Assembly (NCBI GenBank): GCA_000092065.1
Contig: CP000590.1
Origin: Ostreococcus lucimarinus
Lineage: Eukaryota
Length of the DNA: 64,000 bases
Reading direction: 5' to 3' (one strand)
The notes beneath the pieces are model-generated. The model made no database searches, was not told the origin of the DNA, and was given only the letters and a program-made list of their open reading frames with translations. Made by a program: the position numbers and the translations under genes. Below are positions 10,216-39,488 of this stretch, piece by piece. How positions within the stretch are numbered: position 1 is the first letter of the stretch; every line of letters begins with the position of its first letter.

Positions 10216-10536
10216 CCCTTCCCGTCGTCGTCGACTTTGTATCGCATCCCACGATTCCGCCCTCGCGCCGCGCTTCGGTCCCATCGCGCGCGTCGTCGAC
10301 GACGCCGCGTTCGCCGGTCAACCGTCGTCGTCGCCGCCGTCGCGCGTCGCGGTTCGCGCTGCATTGCTCTGCAATCCACCGAGCGACGCGCGTCCGTCGT
10401 CACAATCGAGCGCGCGTCAGAATTCGACCGCGGATCGCGCGAACGAAAGAAAACACCCTCGCGCGCGCGCCTCGCGCCTCGCGCGACCCGAACGCGCGCG
10501 CGCGACGCGACGCGCGACGCATTCGTCGCGGCGCGA

Positions 10537-13500
10537 ATGTCGTCGCTGCGCTGGACGCCCGAGAGTTTACGCGCGACGATTCGCGATGCGGACGCGCTGA
10601 GCGCGCACTGGACGCGCGCGAGCGCGAGCGGACACGGGACGATTCGAGGCGAGCACGCGGTGGCGTTCTTACGACCGAGCGGGTTGAGCGACGGCGCGTT
10701 GAGCAAGATCTGGAAGGCGGCGACGCGAGGCACGGGACGGCTGGCGTCGGCGAAGGAGCTGGGAGAGTGCTTGGAACTCGTGGCGCGGGAGATGGAGGCG
10801 CCGAACGCGGCGTTTGTGACGCCAGGGGCGGGAGGGGAGGGAAAGAGCGTGGGAGGCGGGATCGTGGAATCGCCGAGGACGCCGGCGAGCGCGAGCGCGA
10901 CGACGGTGAAGGCGGCGCCCATGACGGATGCGGAGCGAAGGAAGTACTTTGGACACTTTCGAACGCTCGATGTGGAGGGAAAGGGCGCGGTGAGCGTGGA
11001 TGGAGCGGTGAAGTTTTTATCTAAGGCGGCGCTGCCGATGCTTTCGGTGCAGTTGTGCGTGGCGAGGGCCTCGCGCGGGGCGTCGACGGTGGATCGAGAG
11101 GCGTTCGCGGCGGCTATGCACGATGTGTACGCGCTCATTCGCGCGCAAGGTAACACACCGGTGACGCCGATGATGACACCAAGCGCGAGCGTGGCGCCGA
11201 GCGCACCCGTACCGTCGGTATCGGACGCGAGCGTTTCCAAACTGGAGGACAACTTTTTTGCGAGCGCGGGCGCGCCGACGCTCGGCGCGAGTGCGCTCGA
11301 GGCGACGAGTGCCATGTCGCTGGATTCGCTTAATGATAGCGGCGAAATCGAACGACTAGAACGCGAGTCTCAGGCGCGAGCGGAGAAGGCAAAACGCGAA
11401 GTACAAGCCGCCGATGCGAAGCGGGCAGCCGCCGAGGCTCGCATCGCTCGCGCGCAACGAGCCATCGACGCAGCGGACGAGGACGTCAACGCTGCGCGCG
11501 CCGCCGTCGAGGCCGCGGAAGCTGAGGCAGAGCGAATGAAGCGCGACGCAACAGCGCGCCTCGACAATGCGCGGCAGCAGCACGCGGAGCTCGTTCAAAA
11601 GGAGAGCCGGGTGAAGGCAGACGCGCAACAGCTCATCGCGGCGAAAAAGGCGCAGTACCAGTCAACCTTGGCGGAGTACGAGCGCTTGAGGGCCCAAGTT
11701 GCCAACGCTTCTGCTGTTGCGGCTTTACCAGTGAAAGCGATGCAAGACAAGCTGTCGAAGATTGAAGCCGAAACGCGCTCGCTTAAAACGCAAACTGATA
11801 AAGCCGCCGCTGACGCTTCGCAAGCGCTCATGAAGCGAGCGGTCGAAGTCGCCAAGGCGGAGCGCGCGAAAGCCGCAGCGATGCGAGAAATGCAAGCCGT
11901 GGATGCCAAGCTCGAAATGGAGACTAGTCGAAGTCAGAAGCAGTTGGAAGCGCTACAAGCAGAAACCGAAGCGCTCATCGCGAAACGTGAAGCCAAAACG
12001 GCGTCGCATCCCGCGGTGATGGAAGATCTCAGCGCGAAGATTCAAAAGTGCAGAGAAGACGCGGTGAAGGAAAAAGAAAAAACGGAAAGTACGATCGCTG
12101 CGTGCGACAAGGAGCGTTCTGATCTCGAAGCGAAGGTTTCGCTCGCGAAAGCTGAACTTGAAGCCGCGAAATCTGTCATGGACAGCGATTTGGCCACTCA
12201 CAAGCTCAAGCTCGAAGAGAAGAGGACGTCGCACGAAGAGGTTTCCGAGGCCGTTAGACAGGCCCTGGAGAAGCGCCGCGCGTTGGCGGAGAATCAAGCC
12301 ATGGAAATGTCCGTCCTCGACGACAAAATAATCGAAGCTGAATCTGCGCTCAAGGCAGAAGAAGCGGCTTTCGACGCACAGGAGCAGTCGCACCAAAAAG
12401 AGATGTCTACGAAGGAGGGCGTGCTCGCGAACCTCAACTCAAAGATTGACGCGATGCGAGCGCAGATGGAGGACAAGTATCTCATGTCTCAGCAAGCTCT
12501 CAGTCAAATCGAGGCGCGCATCGATGCCGCGGAGTTGAAATTCGAAGAGCAGCAACAAGAGATGGAGCTTGGAATGGCGCGGTTGGGGCAAGAAAGCGAC
12601 GAGTTGACAGAGAAGCTGCGCGTGGCAAAGGAAAAAGACGAACAAAACGCCAAGGACAAGGTTCAAAACCAAGTGCTCGTTGCGTCCAAGCGCGCGGAAG
12701 TGGAAGAGCTCAAACAAGAAATTTCTACCGAGTCGTCGCGAATCGAACGCGAGGTGTCTGAAGCGCAGACCGAGTTCGCGACTGCGAACGCGGCGCTGGA
12801 TGCGGAACGATCGGCGTTGAGCAACGCTCTGCAAAAGTTGCGAGAGACACTTCCCAAATCCGCCGCGGTGCTCGCGCAGATTGAAGCACTTCGTTCTTCC
12901 AAGGAAACCACAGAGTTGTACCGCATGGAAGCCGAAGACACCGCGGAAAAAGCGATGACGTCTTACGAGGAAGTATTGCGACGACTCGAGAATATCGCGA
13001 TGCAAGAGGCGGAGAACGCAGCCGATGCCGGCGAACCCCTATTCGCCGACGCACAAGCCGCGCTCGCAAGCGCAGGTGCTGTGACTTTTGATTCAAACAG
13101 TTTCCAACCCGCGGAAGGTCCTGGGCACGAACGACTTCCCTCTTTCGTCGATTTCGAAGTTTCCCCGGTGATGGAAACGAAAACGCCGACGCTTGACGCA
13201 GACTTTGGTGAGCCGTTTGGTGCGTCGGATGCGTTCGGAGAGCCCGACGACATCTTCGCGGCTGGCGGCGGCGACGTCTTCGCTGCGCCGCCCGCGACGG
13301 ACGTTTTCGCGACTTCCAATGCGACTGATTTCGATGACGTGTCGTTCACCATGGCACCAACGTCGGAAAGCCAGTTTAGATCTTTCTCTCTGGATGAACC
13401 GGAACCCGAGGTGCCTCCAGCGGACGACTTTGCGGCTGCCGAAGAGCCGATCGAATCCTTCGGCGCGTTTGAAGAATTTCAGCCCGAAGCAACCGGTGCA

Positions 13501-14976
13501 GATAGTCCATTTGAGCCGTCTGCTAAGAGTGAACCCGAGGTGCCTCCAGCGGACGACTTTACGGCTGCCGAAGAGCCGATCGAATCCTTCGGCGCGTTTG
13601 AAGAATTTCAGCCCGAAGCAACCGGTGCAGATAGTCCATTTGAGCCGTCTGCTAAGAGTTTAGAGTTTACCGGTGCAGACACTTTCGAGCCCATGAGCGA
13701 TGAAGCGCGTTCTCCGTCGGAAGATCCATTCGCCGTGAGCTCGCCGACGGAGGAGAGCGCGCCGGCGTTTACAACTTTCGATAACCAAGCGTTCACCTCA
13801 AACGATGACCAACAATGGCAGGACGATTTCGCCTCCTCGCCACCGCGGGAAGAATCATCTTGGAACCCGGACGAATCTACAGATGATGCGTTCGCGACTG
13901 CTCAGAAACCGAGCGCGACGTTTGATAGCGGCTTTGAAGCGAACGAATCCGTGTTTGCGACGCCGAGCGCTCTGGCGTTTCAAGGTGGGAATGAAGGTGG
14001 ATTCTCTTCCTTGGACGAAAGTTCGGCGGCACCACCGACGCCTGCGGAAGACTACACGGATGCGCGAGACGAAATGGAAGAGGAACCCCACGAATTGTAC
14101 CCGATTCCTCCCGAAGACTTGTCTCGCAGCAACGCCGCTTGGGAAAAGCTTCGAGGCGACGCCAACGCGCCGGGCGTGACGGGCGAACAAATCGTCTCTC
14201 TCGCGACGAAGACGGGCTTAGATAATTCCGACTTGGCCGTTATATGGAACATTTCGTGCACCCCCGGCGCGAGCGAGTTGAGCATGCACGATTTTGCGCT
14301 TTTCATGCACTTTTTGAAGCATCGTGTCAACGGCGGCGAGCTCCCGTACGAAGTCGACGCCGAGCGTCGAGCGTACTTTTTGGGCGCTCCAGAGATGATC
14401 GAACAACCACCGTCACCACCGACAATTTATGCAGAGACGGTTGAAGATTCGGATCAAATGCCCGCGCCGTCGACGTATCAAACATCATTCAACGAAGCGT
14501 CGACGTCAAACGCCGCTTCGGCGCCGCAAAACGCCTCGGGCGACCGTCTGAGAATTTTCATCGAGTCCGTCGCCAACGTCAAGGAGGCGAGTAAAATGTC
14601 CTCCGCGCACTTCGGCGTCACGCTCGTCGACGGCGAAGGCACGCCCATCGAACCGTCGCAGAACACTCCCATCGGCGTCCAAGTCGGTCCCGACGACGTC
14701 ATGCGCGTCCAAGGCGGCGTCACGTTGAACTCCCTCCCCGCCGAGTGGCCCGAAGGTTCCGCCGTCGTCCTCGAGCTTCGTCACTACAAGCAAAAGGAAA
14801 AGAAAATGTCCACCCGGTGTTGGTCGTTCATGGAGAAAGAATCCATCCGTCTCGGTTTATTCGGTCTTCCCCTCGCCGCCAAGCCCGCGGACACGAAGCG
14901 GCGCAAGGTGAAACTGTACAACAAAGGCAACCCGGATTTGAAAATTCGTTTCTCCTTCGTCGGTCGGGACGAGTGA
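10537..14976 (+). CDS. Eps15/intersectin-like endocytic scaffold with 3 EH domains, a long coiled coil, an acidic DxF/DPF-motif region and a C-terminal C2-like domain
   Basis: ATG at 10537 (MSSLRWTPE...). EH1 (AFLRPSGLSDGALSKIWKAATRG.G.L...ELGECLELV), EH2 (ERRKYFGHFRTLDVEGKGAVSVDGAVKFLSKAALPMLSVQL) and EH3 (VTGEQIVSLATKTGLDNSDLAVIWNISCTPGASELSMHDFALFMHFL). About 600 aa of coiled coil lie between them. The acidic region has FGEPF, DDIF, DPF and FGAFEEF motifs, and the C-terminal end is a beta-rich C2-like segment. Confidence 0.7.
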   Translation: MSSLRWTPESLRATIRDADALSAHWTRASASGHGTIRGEHAVAFLRPSGLSDGALSKIWKAATRGTGRLASAKELGECLELVAREMEAPNAAFVTPGAGGEGKSVGGGIVESPRTPASASATTVKAAPMTDAERRKYFGHFRTLDVEGKGAVSVDGAVKFLSKAALPMLSVQLCVARASRGASTVDREAFAAAMHDVYALIRAQGNTPVTPMMTPSASVAPSAPVPSVSDASVSKLEDNFFASAGAPTLGASALEATSAMSLDSLNDSGEIERLERESQARAEKAKREVQAADAKRAAAEARIARAQRAIDAADEDVNAARAAVEAAEAEAERMKRDATARLDNARQQHAELVQKESRVKADAQQLIAAKKAQYQSTLAEYERLRAQVANASAVAALPVKAMQDKLSKIEAETRSLKTQTDKAAADASQALMKRAVEVAKAERAKAAAMREMQAVDAKLEMETSRSQKQLEALQAETEALIAKREAKTASHPAVMEDLSAKIQKCREDAVKEKEKTESTIAACDKERSDLEAKVSLAKAELEAAKSVMDSDLATHKLKLEEKRTSHEEVSEAVRQALEKRRALAENQAMEMSVLDDKIIEAESALKAEEAAFDAQEQSHQKEMSTKEGVLANLNSKIDAMRAQMEDKYLMSQQALSQIEARIDAAELKFEEQQQEMELGMARLGQESDELTEKLRVAKEKDEQNAKDKVQNQVLVASKRAEVEELKQEISTESSRIEREVSEAQTEFATANAALDAERSALSNALQKLRETLPKSAAVLAQIEALRSSKETTELYRMEAEDTAEKAMTSYEEVLRRLENIAMQEAENAADAGEPLFADAQAALASAGAVTFDSNSFQPAEGPGHERLPSFVDFEVSPVMETKTPTLDADFGEPFGASDAFGEPDDIFAAGGGDVFAAPPATDVFATSNATDFDDVSFTMAPTSESQFRSFSLDEPEPEVPPADDFAAAEEPIESFGAFEEFQPEATGADSPFEPSAKSEPEVPPADDFTAAEEPIESFGAFEEFQPEATGADSPFEPSAKSLEFTGADTFEPMSDEARSPSEDPFAVSSPTEESAPAFTTFDNQAFTSNDDQQWQDDFASSPPREESSWNPDESTDDAFATAQKPSATFDSGFEANESVFATPSALAFQGGNEGGFSSLDESSAAPPTPAEDYTDARDEMEEEPHELYPIPPEDLSRSNAAWEKLRGDANAPGVTGEQIVSLATKTGLDNSDLAVIWNISCTPGASELSMHDFALFMHFLKHRVNGGELPYEVDAERRAYFLGAPEMIEQPPSPPTIYAETVEDSDQMPAPSTYQTSFNEASTSNAASAPQNASGDRLRIFIESVANVKEASKMSSAHFGVTLVDGEGTPIEPSQNTPIGVQVGPDDVMRVQGGVTLNSLPAEWPEGSAVVLELRHYKQKEKKMSTRCWSFMEKESIRLGLFGLPLAAKPADTKRRKVKLYNKGNPDLKIRFSFVGRDE
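13402..13659 (+). repeat. Perfect tandem duplication, 2 x 129 bp with one mismatch, inside the Eps15-like CDS
   Basis: gaacccgaggtgcctccagcggacgactttgcggctgccgaagagccgatcgaatccttcggcgcgtttgaagaatttcagcccgaagcaaccggtgcagatagtccatttgagccgtctgctaagagt occurs at 13402..13530 and again at 13531..13659 (g>a at one site). It encodes a duplicated 43-aa EPEVPPADDF(A/T)AAEEPIESFGAFEEFQPEATGADSPFEPSAKS module. Confidence 0.9.
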
Positions 14977-24097: not shown

Positions 24098-25117
24098 TTA
24101 CATAAATCGAGGCTTTTTCGTTTTGCTCGCGAGCTTGGCGCGAATGCTCGAGACGTCCACCTTGGGCGCGGACGACTTCTTGGGCTCCGCACCGCGCGCC
24201 GCGAACGCGGCGCGCGCGTTTTCATCGCTCATATCTAAATGAATCGTCTCGTCGTACGTCGGCATTTCGTTGAGCATGTCCTTGGACACGTAATTCTCCT
24301 CCGCCGCGCGCGTCGCCGCCGCACCGGAGCCGTAGTGCACGCCGGTGAAGGAGACGTGTCCGCCGCCTTGAATTTTCCCTTCCGCGCGTAGTTCCTCCAC
24401 TTTCCTCCGCACCGCGAGCGTCAAGTACTCCTTTCTCGTGTCTTTGTGACTCAACAAATCGAGCACGTTTTTCACCGCGCGCTGCGCCGCGGGCGCCTTC
24501 GCGTGCGCGTTCCTCGATTTATCCAAACGTAAACTCAACAGTTTGCATCGCATCGCGATTTCGTTTGTTTTCACCGCCTCGTGTCCGCTCCATTCAACCT
24601 TACCGAGCGAATCGATGGGCACCTCGCGCAACTTTAACAAACGCAAAAAATCCTTGTCCCGGTGCGCCGCGAGTATGTCTTCAATCTCCTTCGCCGTCGC
24701 CACGCCCAGGCGCGCGTTCACGTCCTCCGTCACCGCATCATCTAACGTCAGTTTCGGCGCGTAGTCCTCCACCTTGGCGCCTCCCATGCGCACCGCGCCG
24801 CCCGTGACGCGTCCCGAGCCGCCGGCGCCGTCCCCGTCCAGTCCTTGTCGCGCCCGCGAACTCGCCATCGACGCCTTCACCGCCTCCGCCAAGTCATCGC
24901 CCGACGGTGCTCGCTTCTTTTCACCCGCCAGCGCGCGTTTCAGCGCTTCGCGGAACGTCGCCGCGTCGTCGTCGCGCACGCCGACGTCTTCGAGCAGCGC
25001 GTCCAAGTCTCTCTCGTAACGCAAATCGTCGACGGTATCGACGCCTTGCTCGACGAAACGCGCGGCGTAGTGCTCGTCGAGACCGGCGTCGACGATGAAG
25101 TCGCGCACGGCGACCAT
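24098..25117 (-). CDS. Conserved hypothetical protein (N-terminal SAM-like helical module; K-rich C-terminus)
   Basis: ATG at 25117 (MVAVRDFIVDAGLDEHYAARFVEQGVDTVDDLRYERDLDALLEDVGV...). I did not recognise a family. It is real-looking in composition, with a clean TGTAA-containing stop. Confidence 0.4.
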   Translation of the reverse strand: MVAVRDFIVDAGLDEHYAARFVEQGVDTVDDLRYERDLDALLEDVGVRDDDAATFREALKRALAGEKKRAPSGDDLAEAVKASMASSRARQGLDGDGAGGSGRVTGGAVRMGGAKVEDYAPKLTLDDAVTEDVNARLGVATAKEIEDILAAHRDKDFLRLLKLREVPIDSLGKVEWSGHEAVKTNEIAMRCKLLSLRLDKSRNAHAKAPAAQRAVKNVLDLLSHKDTRKEYLTLAVRRKVEELRAEGKIQGGGHVSFTGVHYGSGAAATRAAEENYVSKDMLNEMPTYDETIHLDMSDENARAAFAARGAEPKKSSAPKVDVSSIRAKLASKTKKPRFM

Positions 25118-25197
25118 GGCGTCGGTCGGGCGCGAGCGGAGGCTGATTGTGAGGGCGGCGCGAGCGCGGGCGCGACGACGCGAGCTACAACGCAAAG

Positions 25198-26667: not shown

Positions 26668-27216
26668 ATGAAGGATGATTCGGCGTCGTTGGCGCGGTTG
26701 TTGCAGGAGCAAGAGCGCGCGTACTTCATGATGCGCTTCGACGGGAACGCGCGAGGCGAGACGGCGTTCGCGGACGAGGACGCGGCGTTCGAGGAGGAGG
26801 AAGAGGATGAATCGTTGGCGCTCGCGAGGCAACTGCAGGAACAGGAGGAACAAGAGTATAGGAATCGGATGTTGGCCATGGCTGGGATCGATCCCGATGC
26901 GGAGGAGGATTCTGAGGCGGAGGGGATCGATACGGACGCGATGACGTACGAGGAGTTGTGCGAGCTCGGGGACGTCGTGGGGAAGGTGACGTGTGGGCTC
27001 ACCGATGCGCAAATCGCGTCGTTGCCGCAAAGGACGATCGATGCGAGCGTGGCGGGGACGAAGTGTGCGGTGTGTTGCATGGAATTCGACGCCGGTGAGG
27101 ACGCGTGCGAGTTGCCGAGGTGCGGGCACGTGTATCACGGTGAGTGCGTCGAGCCGTGGTTGAAGGAGAACAAGTCGTGTCCGACGTGCAAGACGGAGGT
27201 GTTCGAAGAGACTTAG
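26668..27216 (+). CDS. RING-H2 E3 ubiquitin ligase with two N-terminal UIM-like motifs
   Basis: ATG at 26668 (the overlapping ATGA is shared with the stop of the upstream ORF). SLARLLQEQERAY and SLALARQLQEQEEQEY are UIM-like. The C-terminal RING-H2 is CAVCCMEFDAGEDACELPRCGHVYHGECVEPWLKENKSCPTC. Confidence 0.6.
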   Translation: MKDDSASLARLLQEQERAYFMMRFDGNARGETAFADEDAAFEEEEEDESLALARQLQEQEEQEYRNRMLAMAGIDPDAEEDSEAEGIDTDAMTYEELCELGDVVGKVTCGLTDAQIASLPQRTIDASVAGTKCAVCCMEFDAGEDACELPRCGHVYHGECVEPWLKENKSCPTCKTEVFEET

Positions 27217-27350
27217 TCAAATTCTACTGTACTACCATTTTTACGCCTTAATTCCTTCCATGGACGATTTTTCGCGTAGCGCGGCGTTGCAATGAAGATC
27301 TACGCGTCTCGTTTCTCTCTGGCATCGTTTCTCTCTGGTATCGTTTCATC

Positions 27351-30300
27351 TCACGCTGTCGCGGGATTCACAACCAGCGAAGCGGTTTCTTTCGGGTCCC
27401 ACGCCATCGCGCCCTTCGCCTTCAAGCCCACGAATCCGAGAGGGATGTCACTCGGCATACCGTCCACGTCGAGCGCGGCCGCGCACTTCTTCGCGCTCGC
27501 GCCGATCAACTGCACGCGAAGCTCGTCGCCGGCGTGATCGCAGAGCGTCACGAACAACATGTCAAACTTCTTCCCAGTCTTTGGATTCTCTTTCACAGCC
27601 ACTCCGTTCGCGGGCTCGCGCTTGATGAGTTGCCCGATGACGTTTATCGACGTCCCCGGCGGCTTGCTTGCGATCGAGGCAAACGCGCACGGTTCCGCCG
27701 CCCCTGCGGGCCACGCCGCTTGGGGAATTTCCAAACGCTTCGCGGCGGGCGTCGGCGGCGCCGACAACGGTACGGTGTTCTCTTTTGAACTGTGCTGAAT
27801 GAGCCCGACGCCCGCCCAAAGATCGTTCACGTGAGAAACGAGCGCGCGTCTGGCGTGCGATTCTTTCCTCTTCATGGCCGCTTTGATGGGCGACAAGACG
27901 TGCGTCTTTACGAGCCGCGTCGCCGCGGGTGTCGAAATCGCGAAGGCTGATATAAACTTGAGCGCGGCCACAGCCGTGGCCGTCGGCGACGCTTGCTCGA
28001 CGTCAGTTTCTCGCGCATCGGCCAAAGTTTCCACCGGTGGCTTGAACGAGCGGTAAACTTCCTCCAAAGCGTGCGTCGTCGCAGACGGCGTCGCGCCCAA
28101 CACGCCTCGCAGCCGGCGACCGGCGGCGTTGCGATCCATCTCGCTGAGTGGCATGAAGCCCTTGCTTTGCTCTGCGCCACCGAGCGCGTATGCGATTTCA
28201 CCGATCGCCGCTCGCATTATCGCGATGAAGAAGACGTTTTCGGGCTCCGTAGATGCCACCACATCGCCGTCGACGCGCGCCGTGAGATCTGGATGGTGCG
28301 TCACTGCGTCGATGAGTAAGCGATAGAGCGCTGCACGAATACTCGTATCCGATGTTGAAATCGGTGGCGGTGCCGCACTTTTACCGATGGCGACCGCAGG
28401 TGGCTGAAGCGCGTCCAAAATCGACGGCATAAGCGCTCGCAGCCACGTGGCTTCAGAACTCTTCTTCGTCAAAAGCGCGAGCGCGAGCGCCCATCCCTTC
28501 GCGGCTTGCGTGCCAGCTTTGCTCGACGCCGTGTATCTCGCGCGCTCTATCGATCGTTTTGCGCACGAGGTGATGACGAACTCGCGAAGCGCGACGACCT
28601 TTTCGCTGGCAATTCCTAAACTCACGTGCAAAGAATCGGTGGCGTCGAGCGCCGCCCAAATGGCGCCGATGGCGTCGTCGGCATCCGTCGCTCGCGGTCG
28701 TTCCATCGTCTCGTGCAATATCGCGACAAGCGTCGTCAGCATTGTGACGTCGCGGGGATCAAACTTCAAGGCGACCGTCAGCATAGCGTGCGCCAATGTT
28801 TCAGCGCGAGCTTCCGATTGACGCCCACCTCTCGTCGAGCTCAACTCCACCGTCTTGCAAAGCATGGGCACGAGTTTTGGCGGCGGTGGCGCCAAGAAAG
28901 CGTCCGACAGATGAGACACCGCCGTCGTGAGAATCAAAGCACTCGCACCCATGAATGCACTTTCACTGTGCTTTCCCCGAACTTCGGCTTCGCGACACGG
29001 GAGCGCATCCCAGAAGGCGTTCGACGCGGCGACGGCTGATACTCGAACCTTGGGCGAAACCGCCGTCGTCGCCGCCTGGTGCAGCACTTCCGCCACCCAA
29101 CGCGCGCGCTTGTGTAACGATGCGTTGTCCGACTTGTCGCACCCTTCCAGCTTTTCGCTCGCAGGGAAAGCGGGGAACAAAATGGGATGTCGTTTCGCGG
29201 CTCTGGTGATTCTCGCGCGGGCTCGACTGATGCCGGTCGCGCCAGATTCCCCGGCGGCGGGATCCATCGTCGCAAGGACCCACAACTTTAGAAGTGGGGC
29301 ACCGATACCGCCGTAATAAATCGGCGTGACGTCGAGTAATCGTGAATAAAGTCGATACGCGAACGCTCGATACGGCGCGCCTGCCAACCGCCAAAAAGTT
29401 GCCGGCGTGTGCGGAGCCACGACGGCTGTCTCCGCTTGGCTCCACGTCCAAACGCCAGACCGAAGCAGCAGGGCGATGAGCCGAGCCGAGCCTTCGATAG
29501 CCGCTCGCGTGACTCCAGAACCACCAACAGTTGTCACTGGCGAGTTCGAGCGCGCCGGGAAATCTAGAGCGAGTAAATTCGAAAGCGCCGGCCATATGTG
29601 TTCGCTCGCATTCTTAGCCAAAGCCAACGTCTCGGGTGATTTTGGATCTCCCCAATCACGCGTGGCCGCGGTGACGGCGGCGGCGATCAAACGTAGCGCT
29701 TGCTTCCTCAATTTAACTTTGAACGGATAGCTCGGGTCGAGAAACGCAGCGAGCGTCGGGCAGAAGAGCTCTTCGCGGCCCGCCAAAGGTGGTCCTCGCA
29801 CAGATCGACGAAGCGCAGCCATGGATGCGTACAGCAAAACGTGCGCCGCTTCGAGTCTTTCCAGCAAAAGCAGGGCGACTTGGTCTTCTTTAGTCGTCTG
29901 ATTTTCGCCCTCGGCATCGACAGCTGCAAGTTCGTGGATCGATGCTTGAATATACGTCGGTAATTCCGGTGGCGTTTCGCCCGACTTGGCTTGTATGTAT
30001 TCGCGAATCATGCAATACTCCTGACCGAGCTCAGCCAAGAGCGTGAGCAACTGAATGAGCGACTCGCCGACGTGGACACCCTGATACGCCGCGTGATCAC
30101 TACAGCGCAGTAGCGCCCTGAGCACGACGGCGCGCGCAGTACTTTGATGCGCGCGAAACGTTTCTGGATCTGCGAGCGTCTCTCGCGCGTCGGAAATTAT
30201 TTGTAAACCTGCGGGCGTCCTCGGCGCAACGCGAGCGATGCGCACGACGAGGGCGCAAAACGCTCGCAGCTCGCTCTCGTCGACCACAATACCAGAGTCT

Positions 30301-32135
30301 GTCTCGACCATTGCGCCGCGAAGGGCTTGGTTGGAGCACACCAACGCGTCCCTGAACTGAAACTCATCTCGCGCCCCGTCTCGAAGGTCACGCAAAATTT
30401 GCGCGCACGCGCCTTCACCCTGCGCGGCGCGAGTTTCCTCGTCCTCTTCTTGCGCGGCGGCGTGTACGGCGCGGCTCTGTGCAGCCTCAACGACTTCCGG
30501 ATTGACTGTCGCAAACTGTTCCGCTTCAGTCGGTCTGGGAACTCGTCGACGACGACGACGACGCGCCGTCGGCGGCGCGACGTCGCCCTGTCGAACGACG
30601 ACTGTCTCGCCGTACTCTGTCGTGTGCGTCGCCACGCCAGGACGCGACGTCGATGGCTCGCGCGTTCTGCGTTCAATCCGATCTCCGTCGTCTTCGTGCA
30701 CGGCATCAACGACGTGACGTTGTTCCCGAGGTACGTGAACAAAGTCTGCGCCAGACGCGCCTTCGTCGTCGGAACGCCACTCTTCGTCCTCGCGGCGATC
30801 AGGAGCGGGTCCATAATCCGTCCGCGCGCGCTTCTGTTTTGGCACACGTTGCGCGACCGACCCTTCGCGCGCCGTCGACGTCGCCGCGTAGGATCGAACG
30901 TGCCCGGTGACGTGATCCGAACGCGGCGGCGCTGCGACCATCGCGACGTCGACCGGCTCGGCATCGCGCGCGACGACGTCCGGCGTGGTGGCAGTTTCGA
31001 CATCACCCTCGCTGTCGGAAGAATTCAACTCAGAACCATCTGAACTTCCATAGCCATCTAGTTGCTGCGCGCCGACGCGGGCACCGCGAGTACCGCGCGC
31101 CCTAGATCGACCGCCGCGTCGCCGCGCGTTCGAGCCGGTTTCGGCGGCTTCGGCGGCGCCGTCGGATTGATCGCCTTCGTCGTCACCATCGGCGCCTCGA
31201 TCCCCATCGGTAACGAGATCACCGAACGCCGCGCGCACACTCGCCGCGACTTTTGCGCGCAAGGCGATGGCTTGCGCCTCTTTGTTCGAGCGCGCGCCGA
31301 AGAGTCCCGGAATGGTGCCGCGACCGCTTCCGCCGCCGCCACCCGCCGCGGCGGGATCACGCTGTCTTCGCTGCCGTTCCGTGTACGCCGCGGGCAAGTC
31401 CAACATCGGCGGTGCGTCTCGCCCACTCACGATGGCGGTCGTGATCAAGTAATGCGCCACCGACGGCCACCCGTACGCCAAAGCCTCGCCCGTCAACTGT
31501 TGCGTCGGGAACAAATTCCGCTTCGCCCGCAAGCAATTCGCCCCGCTACAATTGCATATATCCCGACACACCGGACACCGCCACTCCGCATCCGCCATCG
31601 CCTCGTCCAAATTTTCCCCCACGCGCATCTCCAGGCACCACCCGCACCACGTCCCTCGCCCCCGTCCTCCCTCCGGCGCTCTCCGCCACGTTCCGCACAC
31701 GCACGTCGTCTTCGCGTCCGTCGTCTTTTGTCTACAAAAGTGGCACGTCGTGCACTCTCGACACCCCGCGTCGTGCACGTCCTTGCACCACGTCTTACTC
31801 CCGCGCGCGTCTCGTCGCCACCGTCGCTCGCACCCGTACAACCGATCGTAGTGCGACATCGTGTAGTGTTCCCTCGTCTCGCCCTGCGCCGCGCGCAGCG
31901 CCGCGAGTTCGGGTCCGATCGTCCCGACGCGCGCGCCCTCGCGCGTCGTCGTCGCCGTCGTCGCCGACGCGCTCGCGATTCGCGACGCCGCCGCGTCGCG
32001 CGTCGTCGTCGTCGTCGCCGTCGCGGTTCGTCCGTCGTCGTCGCTCGCGCTCGCGTCGCTCTCCGCGCCGGCGTCGCTCGCGTCCGAGTCCTCGAACGCG
32101 TCGCCCCATCCGAGGTCGTCCGCGACGTCGCGCAT
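27351..32135 (-). CDS. Large (1,595 aa) protein with an N-terminal CDCA7-type zf-4CXXC_R1 zinc finger and a C-terminal OB-fold-like domain
   Basis: ATG at 32135 (MRDVADDLGWGDAFEDSD...). The zinc finger is CRECTTCHFCRQKTTDAKTTCVCG...GTWCGWCLEMRVGENLDEAMADAEWRCPVCRDICNCSGANCLRAKR (a 4CXXC pattern as in CDCA7/JPO1). The middle is long and helical, ARM/HEAT-like. The C-terminal end FDMLFVTLCDHAGDELRVQLIGASAKKCAAALDVDGMPSDIPLGFVGLKAKGAMAWDPKETASLVV has an RPA/SSB-like OB pattern. The first 93 track codons translate the 43-bp minisatellite and are not coding. Confidence 0.55.
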   Translation of the reverse strand: MRDVADDLGWGDAFEDSDASDAGAESDASASDDDGRTATATTTTTRDAAASRIASASATTATTTREGARVGTIGPELAALRAAQGETREHYTMSHYDRLYGCERRWRRDARGSKTWCKDVHDAGCRECTTCHFCRQKTTDAKTTCVCGTWRRAPEGGRGRGTWCGWCLEMRVGENLDEAMADAEWRCPVCRDICNCSGANCLRAKRNLFPTQQLTGEALAYGWPSVAHYLITTAIVSGRDAPPMLDLPAAYTERQRRQRDPAAAGGGGGSGRGTIPGLFGARSNKEAQAIALRAKVAASVRAAFGDLVTDGDRGADGDDEGDQSDGAAEAAETGSNARRRGGRSRARGTRGARVGAQQLDGYGSSDGSELNSSDSEGDVETATTPDVVARDAEPVDVAMVAAPPRSDHVTGHVRSYAATSTAREGSVAQRVPKQKRARTDYGPAPDRREDEEWRSDDEGASGADFVHVPREQRHVVDAVHEDDGDRIERRTREPSTSRPGVATHTTEYGETVVVRQGDVAPPTARRRRRRRVPRPTEAEQFATVNPEVVEAAQSRAVHAAAQEEDEETRAAQGEGACAQILRDLRDGARDEFQFRDALVCSNQALRGAMVETDSGIVVDESELRAFCALVVRIARVAPRTPAGLQIISDARETLADPETFRAHQSTARAVVLRALLRCSDHAAYQGVHVGESLIQLLTLLAELGQEYCMIREYIQAKSGETPPELPTYIQASIHELAAVDAEGENQTTKEDQVALLLLERLEAAHVLLYASMAALRRSVRGPPLAGREELFCPTLAAFLDPSYPFKVKLRKQALRLIAAAVTAATRDWGDPKSPETLALAKNASEHIWPALSNLLALDFPARSNSPVTTVGGSGVTRAAIEGSARLIALLLRSGVWTWSQAETAVVAPHTPATFWRLAGAPYRAFAYRLYSRLLDVTPIYYGGIGAPLLKLWVLATMDPAAGESGATGISRARARITRAAKRHPILFPAFPASEKLEGCDKSDNASLHKRARWVAEVLHQAATTAVSPKVRVSAVAASNAFWDALPCREAEVRGKHSESAFMGASALILTTAVSHLSDAFLAPPPPKLVPMLCKTVELSSTRGGRQSEARAETLAHAMLTVALKFDPRDVTMLTTLVAILHETMERPRATDADDAIGAIWAALDATDSLHVSLGIASEKVVALREFVITSCAKRSIERARYTASSKAGTQAAKGWALALALLTKKSSEATWLRALMPSILDALQPPAVAIGKSAAPPPISTSDTSIRAALYRLLIDAVTHHPDLTARVDGDVVASTEPENVFFIAIMRAAIGEIAYALGGAEQSKGFMPLSEMDRNAAGRRLRGVLGATPSATTHALEEVYRSFKPPVETLADARETDVEQASPTATAVAALKFISAFAISTPAATRLVKTHVLSPIKAAMKRKESHARRALVSHVNDLWAGVGLIQHSSKENTVPLSAPPTPAAKRLEIPQAAWPAGAAEPCAFASIASKPPGTSINVIGQLIKREPANGVAVKENPKTGKKFDMLFVTLCDHAGDELRVQLIGASAKKCAAALDVDGMPSDIPLGFVGLKAKGAMAWDPKETASLVVNPATA

Positions 32136-32185
32136 CGCGTCGCGCAGTCGCGCGGCTGTCGCGACGGATTCGAATCGCGCGCGCG

Positions 32186-32400
32186 CCGACCGACCGCGAT
32201 TCTGACTGTTCGCGCATACGACACGCGACCGACCGACCGCGATTCTGACTGTTTGCGCATACGACACGCGACCGACCGACCGCGAGTCTGACTGTGTGCG
32301 CATACGACACGCGACCGACCGACCGCGATTCTGACTGCGTGCGCATACGACACGCGACCGACCGACCGCGATTCTAACTGTTTGCGCATACGCACGACGC
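32186..32400. repeat. 43-bp minisatellite, about 5 tandem copies
   Basis: The unit cgaccgaccgaccgcgattctgactgtttgcgcatacgacacg is repeated with a few substitutions (gattct/gagtct/gattcta; tgttt/tgtgt/tgcgt). It lies in the 366-bp divergent spacer between the zf-4CXXC gene (ATG 32135, minus) and TrpG (ATG 32501, plus). Confidence 0.85.
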
Positions 32401-32500
32401 GGACCATTATCCAAACCTCGCGCCGTCGCGCCGTCGCGACGCGCGCGCGCGCCACGCGGCGACGCCGCCGAAGGACGCGACGCGAGGACGCGCGCGGACG

Positions 32501-33265
32501 ATGGCGACGGTTCGCGCGGCGACGCCGACGACGCGCGGAGCGACGACGGCGACGCGGACGACGACGACGACGACGACGACGCGATGGACGGGACGACGAC
32601 GACGCGCGGGCGCGGCGGCGCGCGCGACGCGCGAGGACGCGGCGCGACCGGTGGTGATCATAGACAACTACGATAGCTTTACGTATAATCTGTCGCAGTA
32701 CCTCGGGGATTGCGGGTGCGCGCACGCGGTGTATAAGAACGACGAGGTGACGGTGGAGGAGGTGCGCGCGATGCGGCCGCGCGGCGTGATGGTGTCGCCG
32801 GGACCGGGACGACCGGAGGACTCGGGGATCTCGCTGGACGTCGTGCGAGAGCTTGGACCGGAATTCGGCGTGTTCGGGGTGTGCATGGGACATCAGTGCA
32901 TCGGACAGGTGTTCGGGGGGGACATCGTGCGCGCGCCGACGGGGTTGATGCACGGCAAGTCGTCGCCGGTGACGCATCGAACGGATTTGGACACGGTGCT
33001 GAGCGGACTGCCGAGCCCGTTTCAGGCGGCGCGGTATCACTCGTTGGTGATATCGCGGGATAATTTTCCCGAGGATGCGCTCGAGGTGACGGCGTGGACG
33101 GAGGACGGGACCGTCATGGCGGTGAAGCACAAGGCGTATCCTTGGATTCAGGGCGTGCAGTTTCATCCCGAGTCCATCATCACCGAGAACGGGCTGTTGA
33201 TCGTGAAGAATTGGGTGAAAATGATCAACGACAGGGCGGCGGAATCGGAGTTAGCGCGCGCGTAG
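32501..33265 (+). CDS. trpG: Glutamine amidotransferase class I: anthranilate synthase component II / PabA (TrpG), presequence-bearing
   Basis: ATG at 32501. The presequence is MATVRAATPTTRGATTATRTTTTTTTTRWTGRRRR. Then VVIIDNYDSFTYNL...GVCMGHQCIG (catalytic Cys) ...GVQFHPES (His/Glu), giving a full TrpG/PabA fold. Confidence 0.75.
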   Translation: MATVRAATPTTRGATTATRTTTTTTTTRWTGRRRRAGAAARATREDAARPVVIIDNYDSFTYNLSQYLGDCGCAHAVYKNDEVTVEEVRAMRPRGVMVSPGPGRPEDSGISLDVVRELGPEFGVFGVCMGHQCIGQVFGGDIVRAPTGLMHGKSSPVTHRTDLDTVLSGLPSPFQAARYHSLVISRDNFPEDALEVTAWTEDGTVMAVKHKAYPWIQGVQFHPESIITENGLLIVKNWVKMINDRAAESELARA

Positions 33266-36677: not shown

Positions 36678-38154
36678 CTAACACACGCTAAGATACGCCT
36701 GCGCACGTCTGAGCGACTGCGTGAGGTGCGGATGCTGGTTGATTTCATAGCGAATCGCCGCGCTCAGATTGTCGCGCTTTGACTCCAACCGCGAGATTAA
36801 GTGTGCGTACCGTTCACGCTCGTCATTCGATCGCTCGACGTTTTCATCCGTGCCTTCTCCGCCTTTACCAAGTTTTTCAAATCGTTGCGCCATCTTTTGC
36901 AAACTGCTCGTGCCGAGGAGCGCGCGTTCGTACTTTTCGTTTAAACGCGTGGTGGCGTCGACGCGAAGATAATCACGTCGATCGCTCAAGTCGGACATTA
37001 TCGCCGCGATTTTACCGTGCGCGTCTTGCGTTTCCAGATACTCTTTCTCCAGTGCGTCGAGCTTTGGTTTTAGGTCCGCCGTCGCTTTCTGCGCCTCCGC
37101 TAACCGTCTTCGCACGTCGCTCCGAGCGCGCTTCGCAGTCGCCACCATTTCAGCCTCTCGAGCTTCTTCGCCGTCGGCGTCGATTTTGGATTGAATCACA
37201 TCGCCTTTTGCGACGATTATCTCTCGACGCTTGACGCAAGACTCTACCTTCGCCGCGATGTTGCTTCGAGTCGATTCGAGTTTGTGCAAAACGACGGCGA
37301 GCTTGGCGTTTTCCTGCTTGGCGCTCGCCACCTCGCTGTTTCCTTTCGTCGGATCGAGCATGATTTGGGCGTGACGTTCAAACTCAATTCGTCTTTCGAG
37401 ATCTGCGATGGCTCGGTTGATGCGATCGGCGTCCAGATGCGCAGTTCGCACGGCTTCCTCGCGATTGGAAATTTCCACGCGCAACTTCAAATTCTCTCCG
37501 CTGAGCGCGTCGATCTCACCTGCGCGCGCGTTCTCGACTTCGAGCGATCGAATCGCATTTTCGCGCGCACTGGATTCTGTTTGCGCGATTTTCTCATCGA
37601 TTGCGCAAAGCTTGCGTCGTTGACGCTCGATTGTTTTGTTCATGGATTCGCATTCTTCGGCGTAACGACGCGAATTTCTCTCATGTCGATCCCGCTTCTT
37701 CGTCAGTACGTTGTTGTCTTGCACATGCCGGTCGAACTGTTCGATCGCATCTCGACATCGTTCCTCATGGGATACAATGACTTTTTGTGCTCTGAGCCAA
37801 ATCTCACGAAGCCGCCGACAGTTTTGTTCGTTCGACTTAATCTCGTTTCGTAAATGCGCAATTTGTGCCTCGAGCGGGCCAACGTGCTCGGGCGAGACAT
37901 CCCGCAACTTTTCGAGTGTCTTGTTAAGTGCGTCCATCTTTGAAGTGTTATTTTCGATTGCCTCGACGTTACGTGCGATTTCTCTTTCGCACGCGTCGAT
38001 GGCGACACGCCTCTCCGCAACGTTCTTCTCCACGTCAGCCAATCTTTCCCGAATTGTTGACTCTTCTCCCGAGCTGCGCAACATCTCAATCTTGGTTTTT
38101 GCAACTTTGTGCTTCACCACTGTTGATTCATTTCTCGCGACACGTGCGCGCTCT

Positions 38155-38199
<45 letters not shown>

Positions 38200-39488
38200 G
38201 TCGTCATCTTTTCTGCGACGTGCAATAACGCGCGCTCTTGGAGCTCGAAAAGCGCGTGCGTGTGCACCACGTAAGATTGATCGACACGTTCGATCTCGAC
38301 GTCGATTTCGTTCGCGCGGCGCTCCTCGCCGCGCGCGATCTCGTCGTGGTTTCTTGCGCCCAGTTGTACGGCATCACTTTGAGACTTCTTGTCGTCGATA
38401 GCCGCCCTTAAGGAAACGATGAGCGCATCCGCGACTTCAATATCTTTGTCTAGTCTGCTCAGCACTTCAACGTGCGTGCTTTGCGTCGCGTACGCGTCAA
38501 CGAGGCCTTCTTTCACGCCGTCGCGTTCAGCGTCGAGAAGGCGACACGATTCCTCCAGTTCGCGTACTTCTGTTCTACTCCGCTCTAGCATCTCGTCCTC
38601 TTTACCGACTTGCTGAAGCACAAACTTCCACCTCTTGCACGACGCGTCCATACTCGTGTTGATGCTCGAAATTGCATAGTCGCACGTTTCGATTTGCGCC
38701 TGAATCGCCGCCGCGTCTCGCTCAGCGTCTTCGGCGGCTTTGACGTTTTCGAGCGCCGCCGCTCTGGCGCGCTCCACGCACTCCTTCACGTATTTGATAC
38801 GAATCTCACGATTTAACCGCTCACGCTCGGCCGTGTCAACCATATCCGAAGTGACGCTCGCAATGCGTTGAATCACGGCCGTGACGCCTTCGCGATCTCT
38901 CGCCACGGCGCCGTCCTCACGCGTGGCGAGCGCCAAATCTTCCAACTCCACTCGACGTTTCATCGCGCGTCCACGCGCTTCCTCGAGCGCGCGCGCCGCA
39001 CCCTCAGCGTCGCGCTCAAACGCTTCAGTATCACGCTCGGCCGTTTCCCGCGCTTCCCGACAGCGTCGTCGCGTCTCGTCCGTCGACACCCACTCCGCGC
39101 GCGACCTCGCGAGCTCGCCTTGCAGCGCGTACAACTCCACGCCGACGTCCTCGCGCTCGCGCTTTGCCGCGCGCAGCGCGCGGTCGGCGTCGACTGACTT
39201 TTCATTCAACTCATGTAGCCTCGCTTCGAGCTGCGCGCGAAGCGAGGTTTGCGCCGCGCGCACGCGCGCCATCGCATCCGTCTCGACATCACGCATCTCG
39301 GTCCGCGTCACGTCGGCCTCGCGCCTCCCCCGCGCGCGTCGATTCGCGTCGACGCGCGTAGATTCACGTCGACGCGACGATTCGATCGACACGCGCGGCT
39401 CGCGCGGCGCGCGTCGCGGCGCGTCGCGTTCTCTCGTGCGCGCGCTCGCGTGACGGTTGGTGTAAATACGGAACGCCTTTTTTGGCAT
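36678..39488 (-). CDS. Long coiled-coil protein (936 aa); possibly CCDC39/CCDC40-like axonemal protein
   Basis: ATG at 39488 (ATGCCAAAAAAGGCG). It is almost entirely heptad coiled coil with no enzymatic motifs. The family assignment rests only on size and composition and is weak. Confidence 0.45.

Follow-up and report, generated by a model that had tools for sequence, protein, structure and literature searches.

A large green-algal protein predicted to join a CDCA7-type zinc finger to a HEAT/ARM-type solenoid and an RPA70-like OB fold

Recent work has established the zinc finger of CDCA7 as a dedicated hemimethylated-CpG sensor, its function being tied to HELLS and to DNMT1/UHRF1. UHRF1 is itself a reader of hemimethylated CpG, through its SRA domain, and recruits DNMT1. 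Here we describe a large protein with a CDCA7-type finger in the green alga Ostreococcus lucimarinus, encoded on the minus strand at 27351..32135 of a 64,000-nucleotide stretch of contig CP000590.1 (assembly GCA_000092065.1), which we refer to as the window. Very probably, the protein consists of the finger, a disordered linker with motifs resembling nuclear localization signals (NLS), a HEAT/ARM solenoid and a single OB fold like the DNA-binding domains (DBDs) of RPA70, and represents a family of the Chlorophyta. What is new is this effector architecture on a CDCA7-type finger, conserved across green algae; the finger family itself is known.

Fingers of the zf-4CXXC_R1 type have been divided into classes (Funabiki et al. 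2023, PMC10538959). CDCA7 makes up class I, in which every residue associated with ICF (immunodeficiency, centromeric instability, facial anomalies) syndrome is kept; in class II, which includes proteins with DDT and WHIM domains, the ICF glycine is substituted; a third class, linked to JmjC domains, has lost all the ICF residues, and the rest are placed under ‘other’. CG methylation is dense in Mamiellophyte algae; according to the same work it depends in Mamiellophyceae on DNMT5, with no detectable DNMT1 or UHRF1. The source table of that work gives O. lucimarinus and Bathycoccus DNMT5, a DNMT6-like enzyme, HELLS, CDCA7 and a class II protein, and marks DNMT1 and UHRF1 as not detected in either; a separate short CDCA7 is recorded for O. 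lucimarinus, Bathycoccus and Micromonas (Funabiki et al. 2023, PMC10538959). As to the finger, R274 and Q275 of human CDCA7 provide selectivity for hemimethylated CpG, R304 and S330 make backbone contacts and G294 supports zinc coordination, and the animal and Arabidopsis CDCA7 fingers all favour hemimethylated DNA (Wassing et al. 2024, PMC11343034). CDCA7 binds HELLS via a conserved N-terminal helix (HLBH).

The finger lineage considered here is already catalogued. The Bathycoccus finger XP_007510267 (CHFCRQKS ... WCGWCLEMRMGEN ... CSGANC), by its sequence plainly an orthologue of the finger in the window, stands in the ‘Other zf-4CXXC_R1’ column of the published table and lies off plant CDCA7 in the accompanying tree (Funabiki et al. 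2023, PMC10538959). XP_001420168 can be named as the O. lucimarinus counterpart by its column in that table only, not by sequence (Funabiki et al. 2023, PMC10538959). A full-text literature search returned no paper describing the solenoid-plus-OB architecture or any function for the protein, and Pfam has no family for either the solenoid or the OB fold; the preliminary description of this DNA had not recognised the domain combination, and neither the searchable literature nor Pfam supplies a name for it.

The open reading frame begins at an ATG at 32135 and ends with the stop codon at 27351-27353, giving a protein of 1,594 residues. The length of 1,595 reported in the preliminary description counted the stop codon; its reading frame was correct. 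Mechanically the frame extends upstream as far as a TTG at 32414, but this additional stretch merely translates a minisatellite (see below), and we take the ATG as the start because the N-termini of ten orthologues line up from there with the common pattern M..D.LGW..AF.DSD. Ten orthologues with 60-94% identity align colinearly with the protein from end to end, and marine metagenome assemblies encode an identical protein flanked by the same genes. The features of the gene, from the N-terminus of the protein onwards, with positions in amino acids (aa), are as follows.

27351..32135, minus strand: complete single-exon coding sequence, 1,594 aa plus stop codon
31221..31928, minus strand: conserved N-terminal DNA-reader module (aa 70-305; 72-89% identity), consisting of the zinc finger with a segment before it and a basic helix, KEAQAIALRAKVAASVRAAFG, after it
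31752..31787, minus strand: C-x3-H-x3-C-x2-C motif (C117, H121, C125, C128; aa 117-128) just N-terminal of the finger, from the alignment
31446..31760, minus strand: zf-4CXXC_R1 (HMZF) zinc finger, predicted sensor of hemimethylated CpG (aa 126-230), from matches to PF10497 and to CDCA7 structures
30531..31220, minus strand: poorly conserved, probably disordered linker (aa 306-535), with 36% mean identity and many in-frame indels
31002-31046, minus strand: acidic, Ser-rich linker motif SSDGSELNSSDSEGD, invariant or nearly so, consensus SSDGSELxSSDSE
30813-30842, minus strand: NLS-like linker motif PKQKRARTDY, invariant or nearly so, consensus PKQKRART.Y
30543-30563, minus strand: poly-Arg linker motif RRRRRRR, invariant or nearly so
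27810..30530, minus strand: HEAT/ARM-type alpha-solenoid of ~900 aa (aa 536-1442), from an AlphaFold2 model and fold searches
29259..29453, minus strand: most conserved block of the solenoid (aa 895-959), VWTW..E....P(H/Y)....FW.....YR....L ... LLK.W.L...DP, from profile and alignment
27696..27809, minus strand: flexible Pro/Ala-rich linker between solenoid and OB fold (aa 1443-1480), with a predicted local distance difference test score (pLDDT) below 50 at model residues 912-937
27354..27695, minus strand: C-terminal RPA70-DBD-like OB fold (aa 1481-1594), from an AlphaFold2 model

The Pfam model PF10497 matches aa 126-230 over profile positions 4-99 of 99 with a score of 93.7 bits (E = 8.2e-27), about four times the gathering cut-off of 22.7 bits, and the CDCA7 zinc-finger structures 8tle and 8yv8 (human/mouse) are the sole sequence relatives of the protein in the PDB (E ~5e-14). 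The match lies far beyond chance and confirms the CDCA7-type finger first noticed by eye. The residues R135, Q136, G165, R171 and S197 align, respectively, with R274, Q275, G294, R304 and S330 of human CDCA7. All five are invariant in 11 Ostreococcus-type sequences, and remain so when proteins from Chloropicon, Cymbomonas and Auxenochlorella, the relatives P0121 and P0103, human CDCA7 and Micromonas CDCA7 are added. With R135, G165 and R171, the three ICF-associated residues, all in place, the finger has the character of class I.

The conservation extends beyond the finger. The reader module shows 72-89% identity among non-trivial Ostreococcus-type orthologues, against 26-36% in the disordered parts that flank it, and is also kept in Chloropicon, Cymbomonas, Auxenochlorella and P0121. 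All 11 Ostreococcus-type sequences have the C-x3-H-x3-C-x2-C motif at the front of the module without change; Chloropicon, Cymbomonas, P0121 and P0103 share it, and Auxenochlorella has an approximate version. The motif may form an extra zinc knuckle, and we call it family-specific with respect to aligned human CDCA7 sequences that begin C-terminal of its position. Some 50-70 residues past the finger (~31221-31300, aa 280-305), the basic amphipathic helix is likewise conserved and has counterparts in Chloropicon, Cymbomonas and P0121. By analogy it could be a partner-binding helix, comparable with the HELLS-binding helix of CDCA7 in role, not in position. The three motifs within the otherwise poorly conserved linker that follows suggest phosphorylation and nuclear import, the NLS role being a prediction from their sequence.

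An AlphaFold2 model of aa 536-1594, built from eight orthologues (pLDDT 79.5, predicted TM-score 0.66), consists of ~45 helices, a flexible linker and then a beta-barrel. The helices form stacked antiparallel hairpins with fold similarity to HEAT/ARM proteins, and Foldseek searches of the PDB return CAND1, transportin-3, MMS19, importins and solenoids of the FANCI type, with TM-scores of ~0.15. Model and fold searches thus agree on the helical scaffold of roughly 900-1,000 residues that had been proposed from the sequence. No Pfam match to the solenoid was found in the window protein or in nine diverse members of the family, and sequence-profile searches of the PDB gave zero matches to it; as modelled, the solenoid is of HEAT/ARM type and of no named family, the likeness being one of generic fold. 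Its most conserved block, aa 895-959, is matched by all distant relatives (profile positions ~233-495), and nine diverse members all keep W898, P908, W915, R923 and W952. Such conservation may mark a partner-binding surface.

When the last 114 residues are modelled alone, from a 15-sequence family alignment, the result (pLDDT 91.8) is a five-stranded barrel of the order b1-b2-b3-helix-b4-b5, with the helix between b3 and b4 and a close structural match to the RPA DBDs. The C-terminal segment therefore models as the OB fold that its sequence pattern had suggested. Its best matches are the DBDs of RPA70, Teb1 and POT1, and its nearest relatives are OB folds that bind nucleic acid. The loose resemblance to CTC1- or RMI-type OB scaffolds raised in the preliminary description is not supported, and we reject it: a large protein with a C-terminal OB fold is common to both, but CTC1 has multiple OB folds and the RMI type an OB fold pairing with RMI2 in the BTR complex, whereas there is only one here. 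A basic L12 loop, R-[DE]-P-x2-G-x-K-x2-[KN]-x-K, is conserved in the family, and the isoelectric point (pI) of the domain is 9-10 in most non-Ostreococcus members. Nucleic-acid binding by the modelled domain is plausible. Sub-threshold matches to REPA_OB_2 occur in 6 of the 15 family members (best E = 1.4e-3), and a hidden Markov model search of the PDB with the OB fold returned nothing meaningful.

In several relatives a short helical tail continues past the OB fold, namely in Chloropicon primus QDZ19051.1 (P0094, C-terminal 60 aa), P0099, P0098 and P0134. The Chloropicon tail resembles UBA_RAD5A (E = 8e-4) and UBA (E = 0.016), neither match reaching its Pfam cut-off, and this weak UBA signal is seen in Chloropicon only; the window protein stops directly after the OB fold, with no UBA-like tail.

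The same architecture is found in other green algae. A word-indexed search retrieved 11 full-length Ostreococcus-type proteins of 1,578-1,705 aa, every one with a PF10497 match (11/11). Among them is O. tauri XP_022839827.1, which is 71% identical to the C-terminal query and 68% identical when the full length is compared. A diverse profile as the query of the word-indexed search yielded these 11 proteins again and nothing more; the finger module on its own brought up chiefly short fragments from metagenomes and small R1-type proteins of land plants. Neither query widened the taxonomic range. When 1.84 billion representatives were searched exhaustively by profile, 63 relatives came to light. 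Finger and OB fold stand on one polypeptide in the following, the last entry apart.

Chloropicon primus QDZ19051.1: 1,646 aa, finger and OB fold
Cymbomonas tetramitiformis KAK3235146.1: 2,137 aa, finger and OB fold
Auxenochlorella protothecoides A0A1D1ZXG3: 1,905 aa, finger and OB fold
P0121: finger and OB fold
P0206, a Micromonas-like metagenomic protein: 2,230 aa, finger (at aa 170-274) and OB fold
Micromonas pusilla CCMP1545 XP_003064692.1 (P0220): 1,116 aa, solenoid and OB fold only, with no zinc finger

No member of the family was seen outside the green algae among the 63 relatives, the metagenomic matches being not assignable to organisms. Orthologues of the full architecture, which the preliminary description had proposed to look for, are thus at hand in O. 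tauri, Chloropicon, Cymbomonas, Auxenochlorella and the Micromonas-like protein. The sequences place the fusion as ancient within the Chlorophyta, spanning at least four classes. Finger, solenoid and OB fold are each 66-89% identical among non-trivial orthologues, against 26-36% for the linkers, a pattern of purifying selection on three modules joined by fast-evolving linkers.

Set beside CDCA7 and CDCA7L of animals and CDCA7 of plants, the protein has a finger of the same family, with the identical R-Q pair, Gly, Arg and Ser, and its setting is alike in that the genome also holds HELLS and CG methylation. It differs in being 4-5 times longer, in the family-specific Cys/His motif, in details of the finger discussed below, in having no evident N-terminal HELLS-binding helix and in its ~900-aa solenoid and OB fold, which occur in no described CDCA7. 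It is a large CDCA7 paralogue, not a canonical CDCA7. A comparable design, a zf-4CXXC_R1 finger combined with a chromatin effector or adaptor, is known in Viridiplantae from the class II proteins DDR1-3 (DDT and WHIM1 domains; ISWI partners) and from IBM1/JMJ24 of class III (JmjC). Class II, however, replaces the ICF glycine and class III lacks all the ICF residues, whereas the protein in the window keeps them all, and its HEAT/ARM solenoid and RPA-like OB fold are unrelated to DDT/WHIM and to JmjC, neither of which is detected in it by Pfam. With the DBDs A and B of RPA70, Teb1, POT1 and archaeal RPA the OB fold shares sequence identities of just 9-17%, below Pfam thresholds. Unlike RPA70, the protein has a single OB fold, not a tandem array, and joins it to a solenoid and a methyl-DNA reader. 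With UHRF1 the likeness is one of function only, both being large multidomain proteins and UHRF1 reading hemimethylated CpG after replication. It bears on the case in that UHRF1 and DNMT1 went undetected in Mamiellophyceae; there is no homology, and SRA, Tudor, PHD, RING and UBL domains are all missing from the algal protein.

These features can be combined into a proposal for function. The protein would be a nuclear chromatin adaptor, whose finger binds to hemimethylated CpG, a mark that methylated DNA bears only briefly after replication. The solenoid, especially the invariant Trp-rich block at aa 895-959, would recruit one or more partner proteins, while the OB fold would contact nucleic acid, such as single-stranded DNA at or behind replication forks, or an OB-binding partner. 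The resulting complex would thereby gather on DNA just replicated, where it would serve to maintain methylation, restore chromatin or carry out repair. Since a separate short CDCA7 and HELLS exist in the lineage, the protein most likely works in parallel with the canonical CDCA7-HELLS pair and not as CDCA7. Taken as a whole, architecture and nuclear adaptor function on hemimethylated CpG together, this is a tentative explanation, which we rate at a little under an even chance.

Several observations weigh against the proposal. Its functional steps are all read from sequence and models, and the solenoid model derives from a shallow, 8-sequence alignment. In the finger, nine of the eleven signature cysteines of human CDCA7 align exactly; the fourth is present but displaced (C145-x-C147 against the canonical C-x4-C), 9-10 residues are inserted after it and before the CG.C motif, and the eleventh lies two residues off its canonical place (CSGANC, C-x4-C, against CSFC, CxxC). 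All three changes are family-wide, and with them the specificity of the finger could differ from that of canonical CDCA7. For the OB fold, the Pfam models REPA_OB_2, tRNA_anti-codon and SSB all remain sub-threshold, with REPA_OB_2 the best at 16.4 bits against a cut-off of 27, and hhalign with human RPA70 DBD-A, in a sequence whose numbering agrees with F238 and F269, covers 13 columns only (the b2-L23 segment). When that register is extended by hand, beyond those columns an inferred alignment, the position of the stacking residue F238 of RPA70 is aliphatic (L/I/C/V) in 15 of 15 members, with no conserved aromatic. The only tryptophan, W1579 in the b4-b5 region, is the sole candidate for F269 and is confined to Mamiellophyceae. 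In Ostreococcus, moreover, the OB fold is near neutral, with a pI of 6-8.8. Because the stacking aromatic of RPA70 is not conserved, binding of single-stranded DNA by the predicted OB fold is uncertain. Finally, the DNMT and UHRF1 repertoire considered is that of Mamiellophyceae, one of the lineages that bear the family.

How else might the locus be explained? That the 4.8-kb reading frame artificially unites at least two neighbouring genes might be supposed from the poor conservation of aa 306-535 and from the M. pusilla CCMP1545 entry, where solenoid and OB fold are annotated alone. Yet the frame is open and the indels in-frame in 11 of 11 Ostreococcus-type sequences, the linker contains invariant motifs, finger and OB fold share one polypeptide in independently annotated proteins of four other green-algal lineages, and the 2,230-aa Micromonas-like protein carries both as well. 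The recurrence of the fusion across several lineages therefore marks it as no read-through artefact, and it is the M. pusilla reference gene model that is probably split or truncated. We reject the artefact, whose probability we regard as close to nil; the single polypeptide of the preliminary description is upheld by the Micromonas-like contig and by proteins annotated independently in O. tauri, Chloropicon, Cymbomonas and Auxenochlorella. The protein might also simply be the Ostreococcus orthologue of CDCA7, recruiting and activating HELLS/DDM1 at hemimethylated DNA, with the extra domains as lineage-specific decoration. Retention of the three ICF-associated residues and of the Q275 and S330 equivalents, as in class I, and the presence of HELLS in Mamiellophyceae are what this would lead one to expect. 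A different, short protein is, however, CDCA7 in O. lucimarinus, Bathycoccus and Micromonas, and the finger is filed under ‘Other zf-4CXXC_R1’ and does not group with plant CDCA7 in the tree (Funabiki et al. 2023, PMC10538959). The cysteine spacing differs too, and aa 1-69, where an equivalent of the HELLS-binding helix might be sought, are acidic, of low complexity and 26% conserved, with no long conserved helix evident from sequence. Identity with canonical CDCA7 is accordingly rejected as improbable.

The divergence of the finger invites another thought, that it no longer reads hemimethylated CpG and instead binds unmethylated or fully methylated CpG, non-B DNA or a protein, in which case there would be no tie to methylation inheritance. 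The shifted fourth cysteine, the insertion, the altered last cysteine pair and the extra Cys/His motif would fit such a change, as would the fact that other divergent zf-4CXXC_R1 classes, for example the JmjC-linked one, are not directly tied to DNA methylation. Against it, the five residues that contact hemimethylated CpG or the backbone are invariant family-wide, and those residues are gone from the classes in which the function is believed lost; only a slim chance attaches to it in our view. A less improbable departure, still on the unlikely side, concerns the other end of the protein: its OB fold may be a protein-protein interaction module, as in RPA70N, RPA32/RPA14, Ten1 and RMI2, and the whole a scaffold on hemimethylated CpG with no direct link to single-stranded DNA. 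The conserved basic L12 loop speaks for contact with nucleic acid.

The nuclear adaptor proposed above can be carried one step further. The family might be the missing hemimethylation-reading adaptor of DNMT5-type maintenance in green algae without DNMT1 and UHRF1: the finger would mark fresh CpGs, the OB fold would keep the protein at forks or gaps with single-stranded DNA and the solenoid would deliver DNMT5, a remodeller or a repair factor. Such a role as DNMT5 adaptor is pure hypothesis, and we consider it rather improbable. If true, strand-age information, in the form of hemimethylation, would be coupled directly to the replisome through one polypeptide.

The surroundings of the gene call for brief comment. 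The window is GC-rich (56-71%) and dense in genes. Upstream lies one further feature, tied to the gene by position only.

32182-32396, no strand: minisatellite of 43 bp x 5 (Tandem Repeats Finder score 374, 94% matches)

The repeat starts 47 bp upstream of the ATG. Its placement in the 5' region of the gene by the preliminary description needs one correction: it lies upstream of the coding sequence and not within it. The 365 bp that separate the zinc-finger gene from a divergently oriented gene for a class-I glutamine amidotransferase (GATase; ATG at 32501, plus strand) consist mostly of this repeat, and no second copy of it was found within the window. A GC-rich, imperfect, short-period repeat tract lies further upstream at 32435-32648, reaching into the 5' end of the GATase frame. 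On the other side, a convergent gene for a small RING-H2 protein (26668-27213, plus strand; 182 aa; PF13639, E = 1.3e-12) stops 135 bp short of the zinc-finger gene's 3' end. A 16-bp x 2.7 tandem repeat (27309-27352) lies in the gap between the two genes and covers two bases of the stop codon of the zinc-finger gene. The neighbouring genes (prenyltransferase alpha, RING-H2, GATase, rhodanese, Duc1 and inositol monophosphatase) gave no hint of function, as expected in a eukaryote. Elsewhere in the window, a 1,579-aa frame at 10237-14973 (plus strand) has C-terminal EH and Aida_C2 domains (PF14186, E = 2e-46) with no Pfam match over its first ~1,300 residues, and frames of 936 aa (36681-39488, minus strand) and 340 aa (24101-25120, minus strand) have no Pfam match at E <= 0.001.

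Since Mamiellophytes have DNMT5 without detectable DNMT1 or UHRF1, the occurrence in them of a second, larger protein with all the DNA-reading residues of CDCA7 is of note. The area that it touches is the inheritance of methylation without DNMT1 and UHRF1, in which its part is hypothetical. Reading of hemimethylated CpG by this family would be the first indication of such reading outside the CDCA7-HELLS and UHRF1-DNMT1 routes, and would provide a concrete candidate for the targeting of methylation inheritance, chromatin restoration or post-replicative repair in these genomes. As O. tauri is culturable and has an annotated orthologue, the hypothesis is directly testable there.

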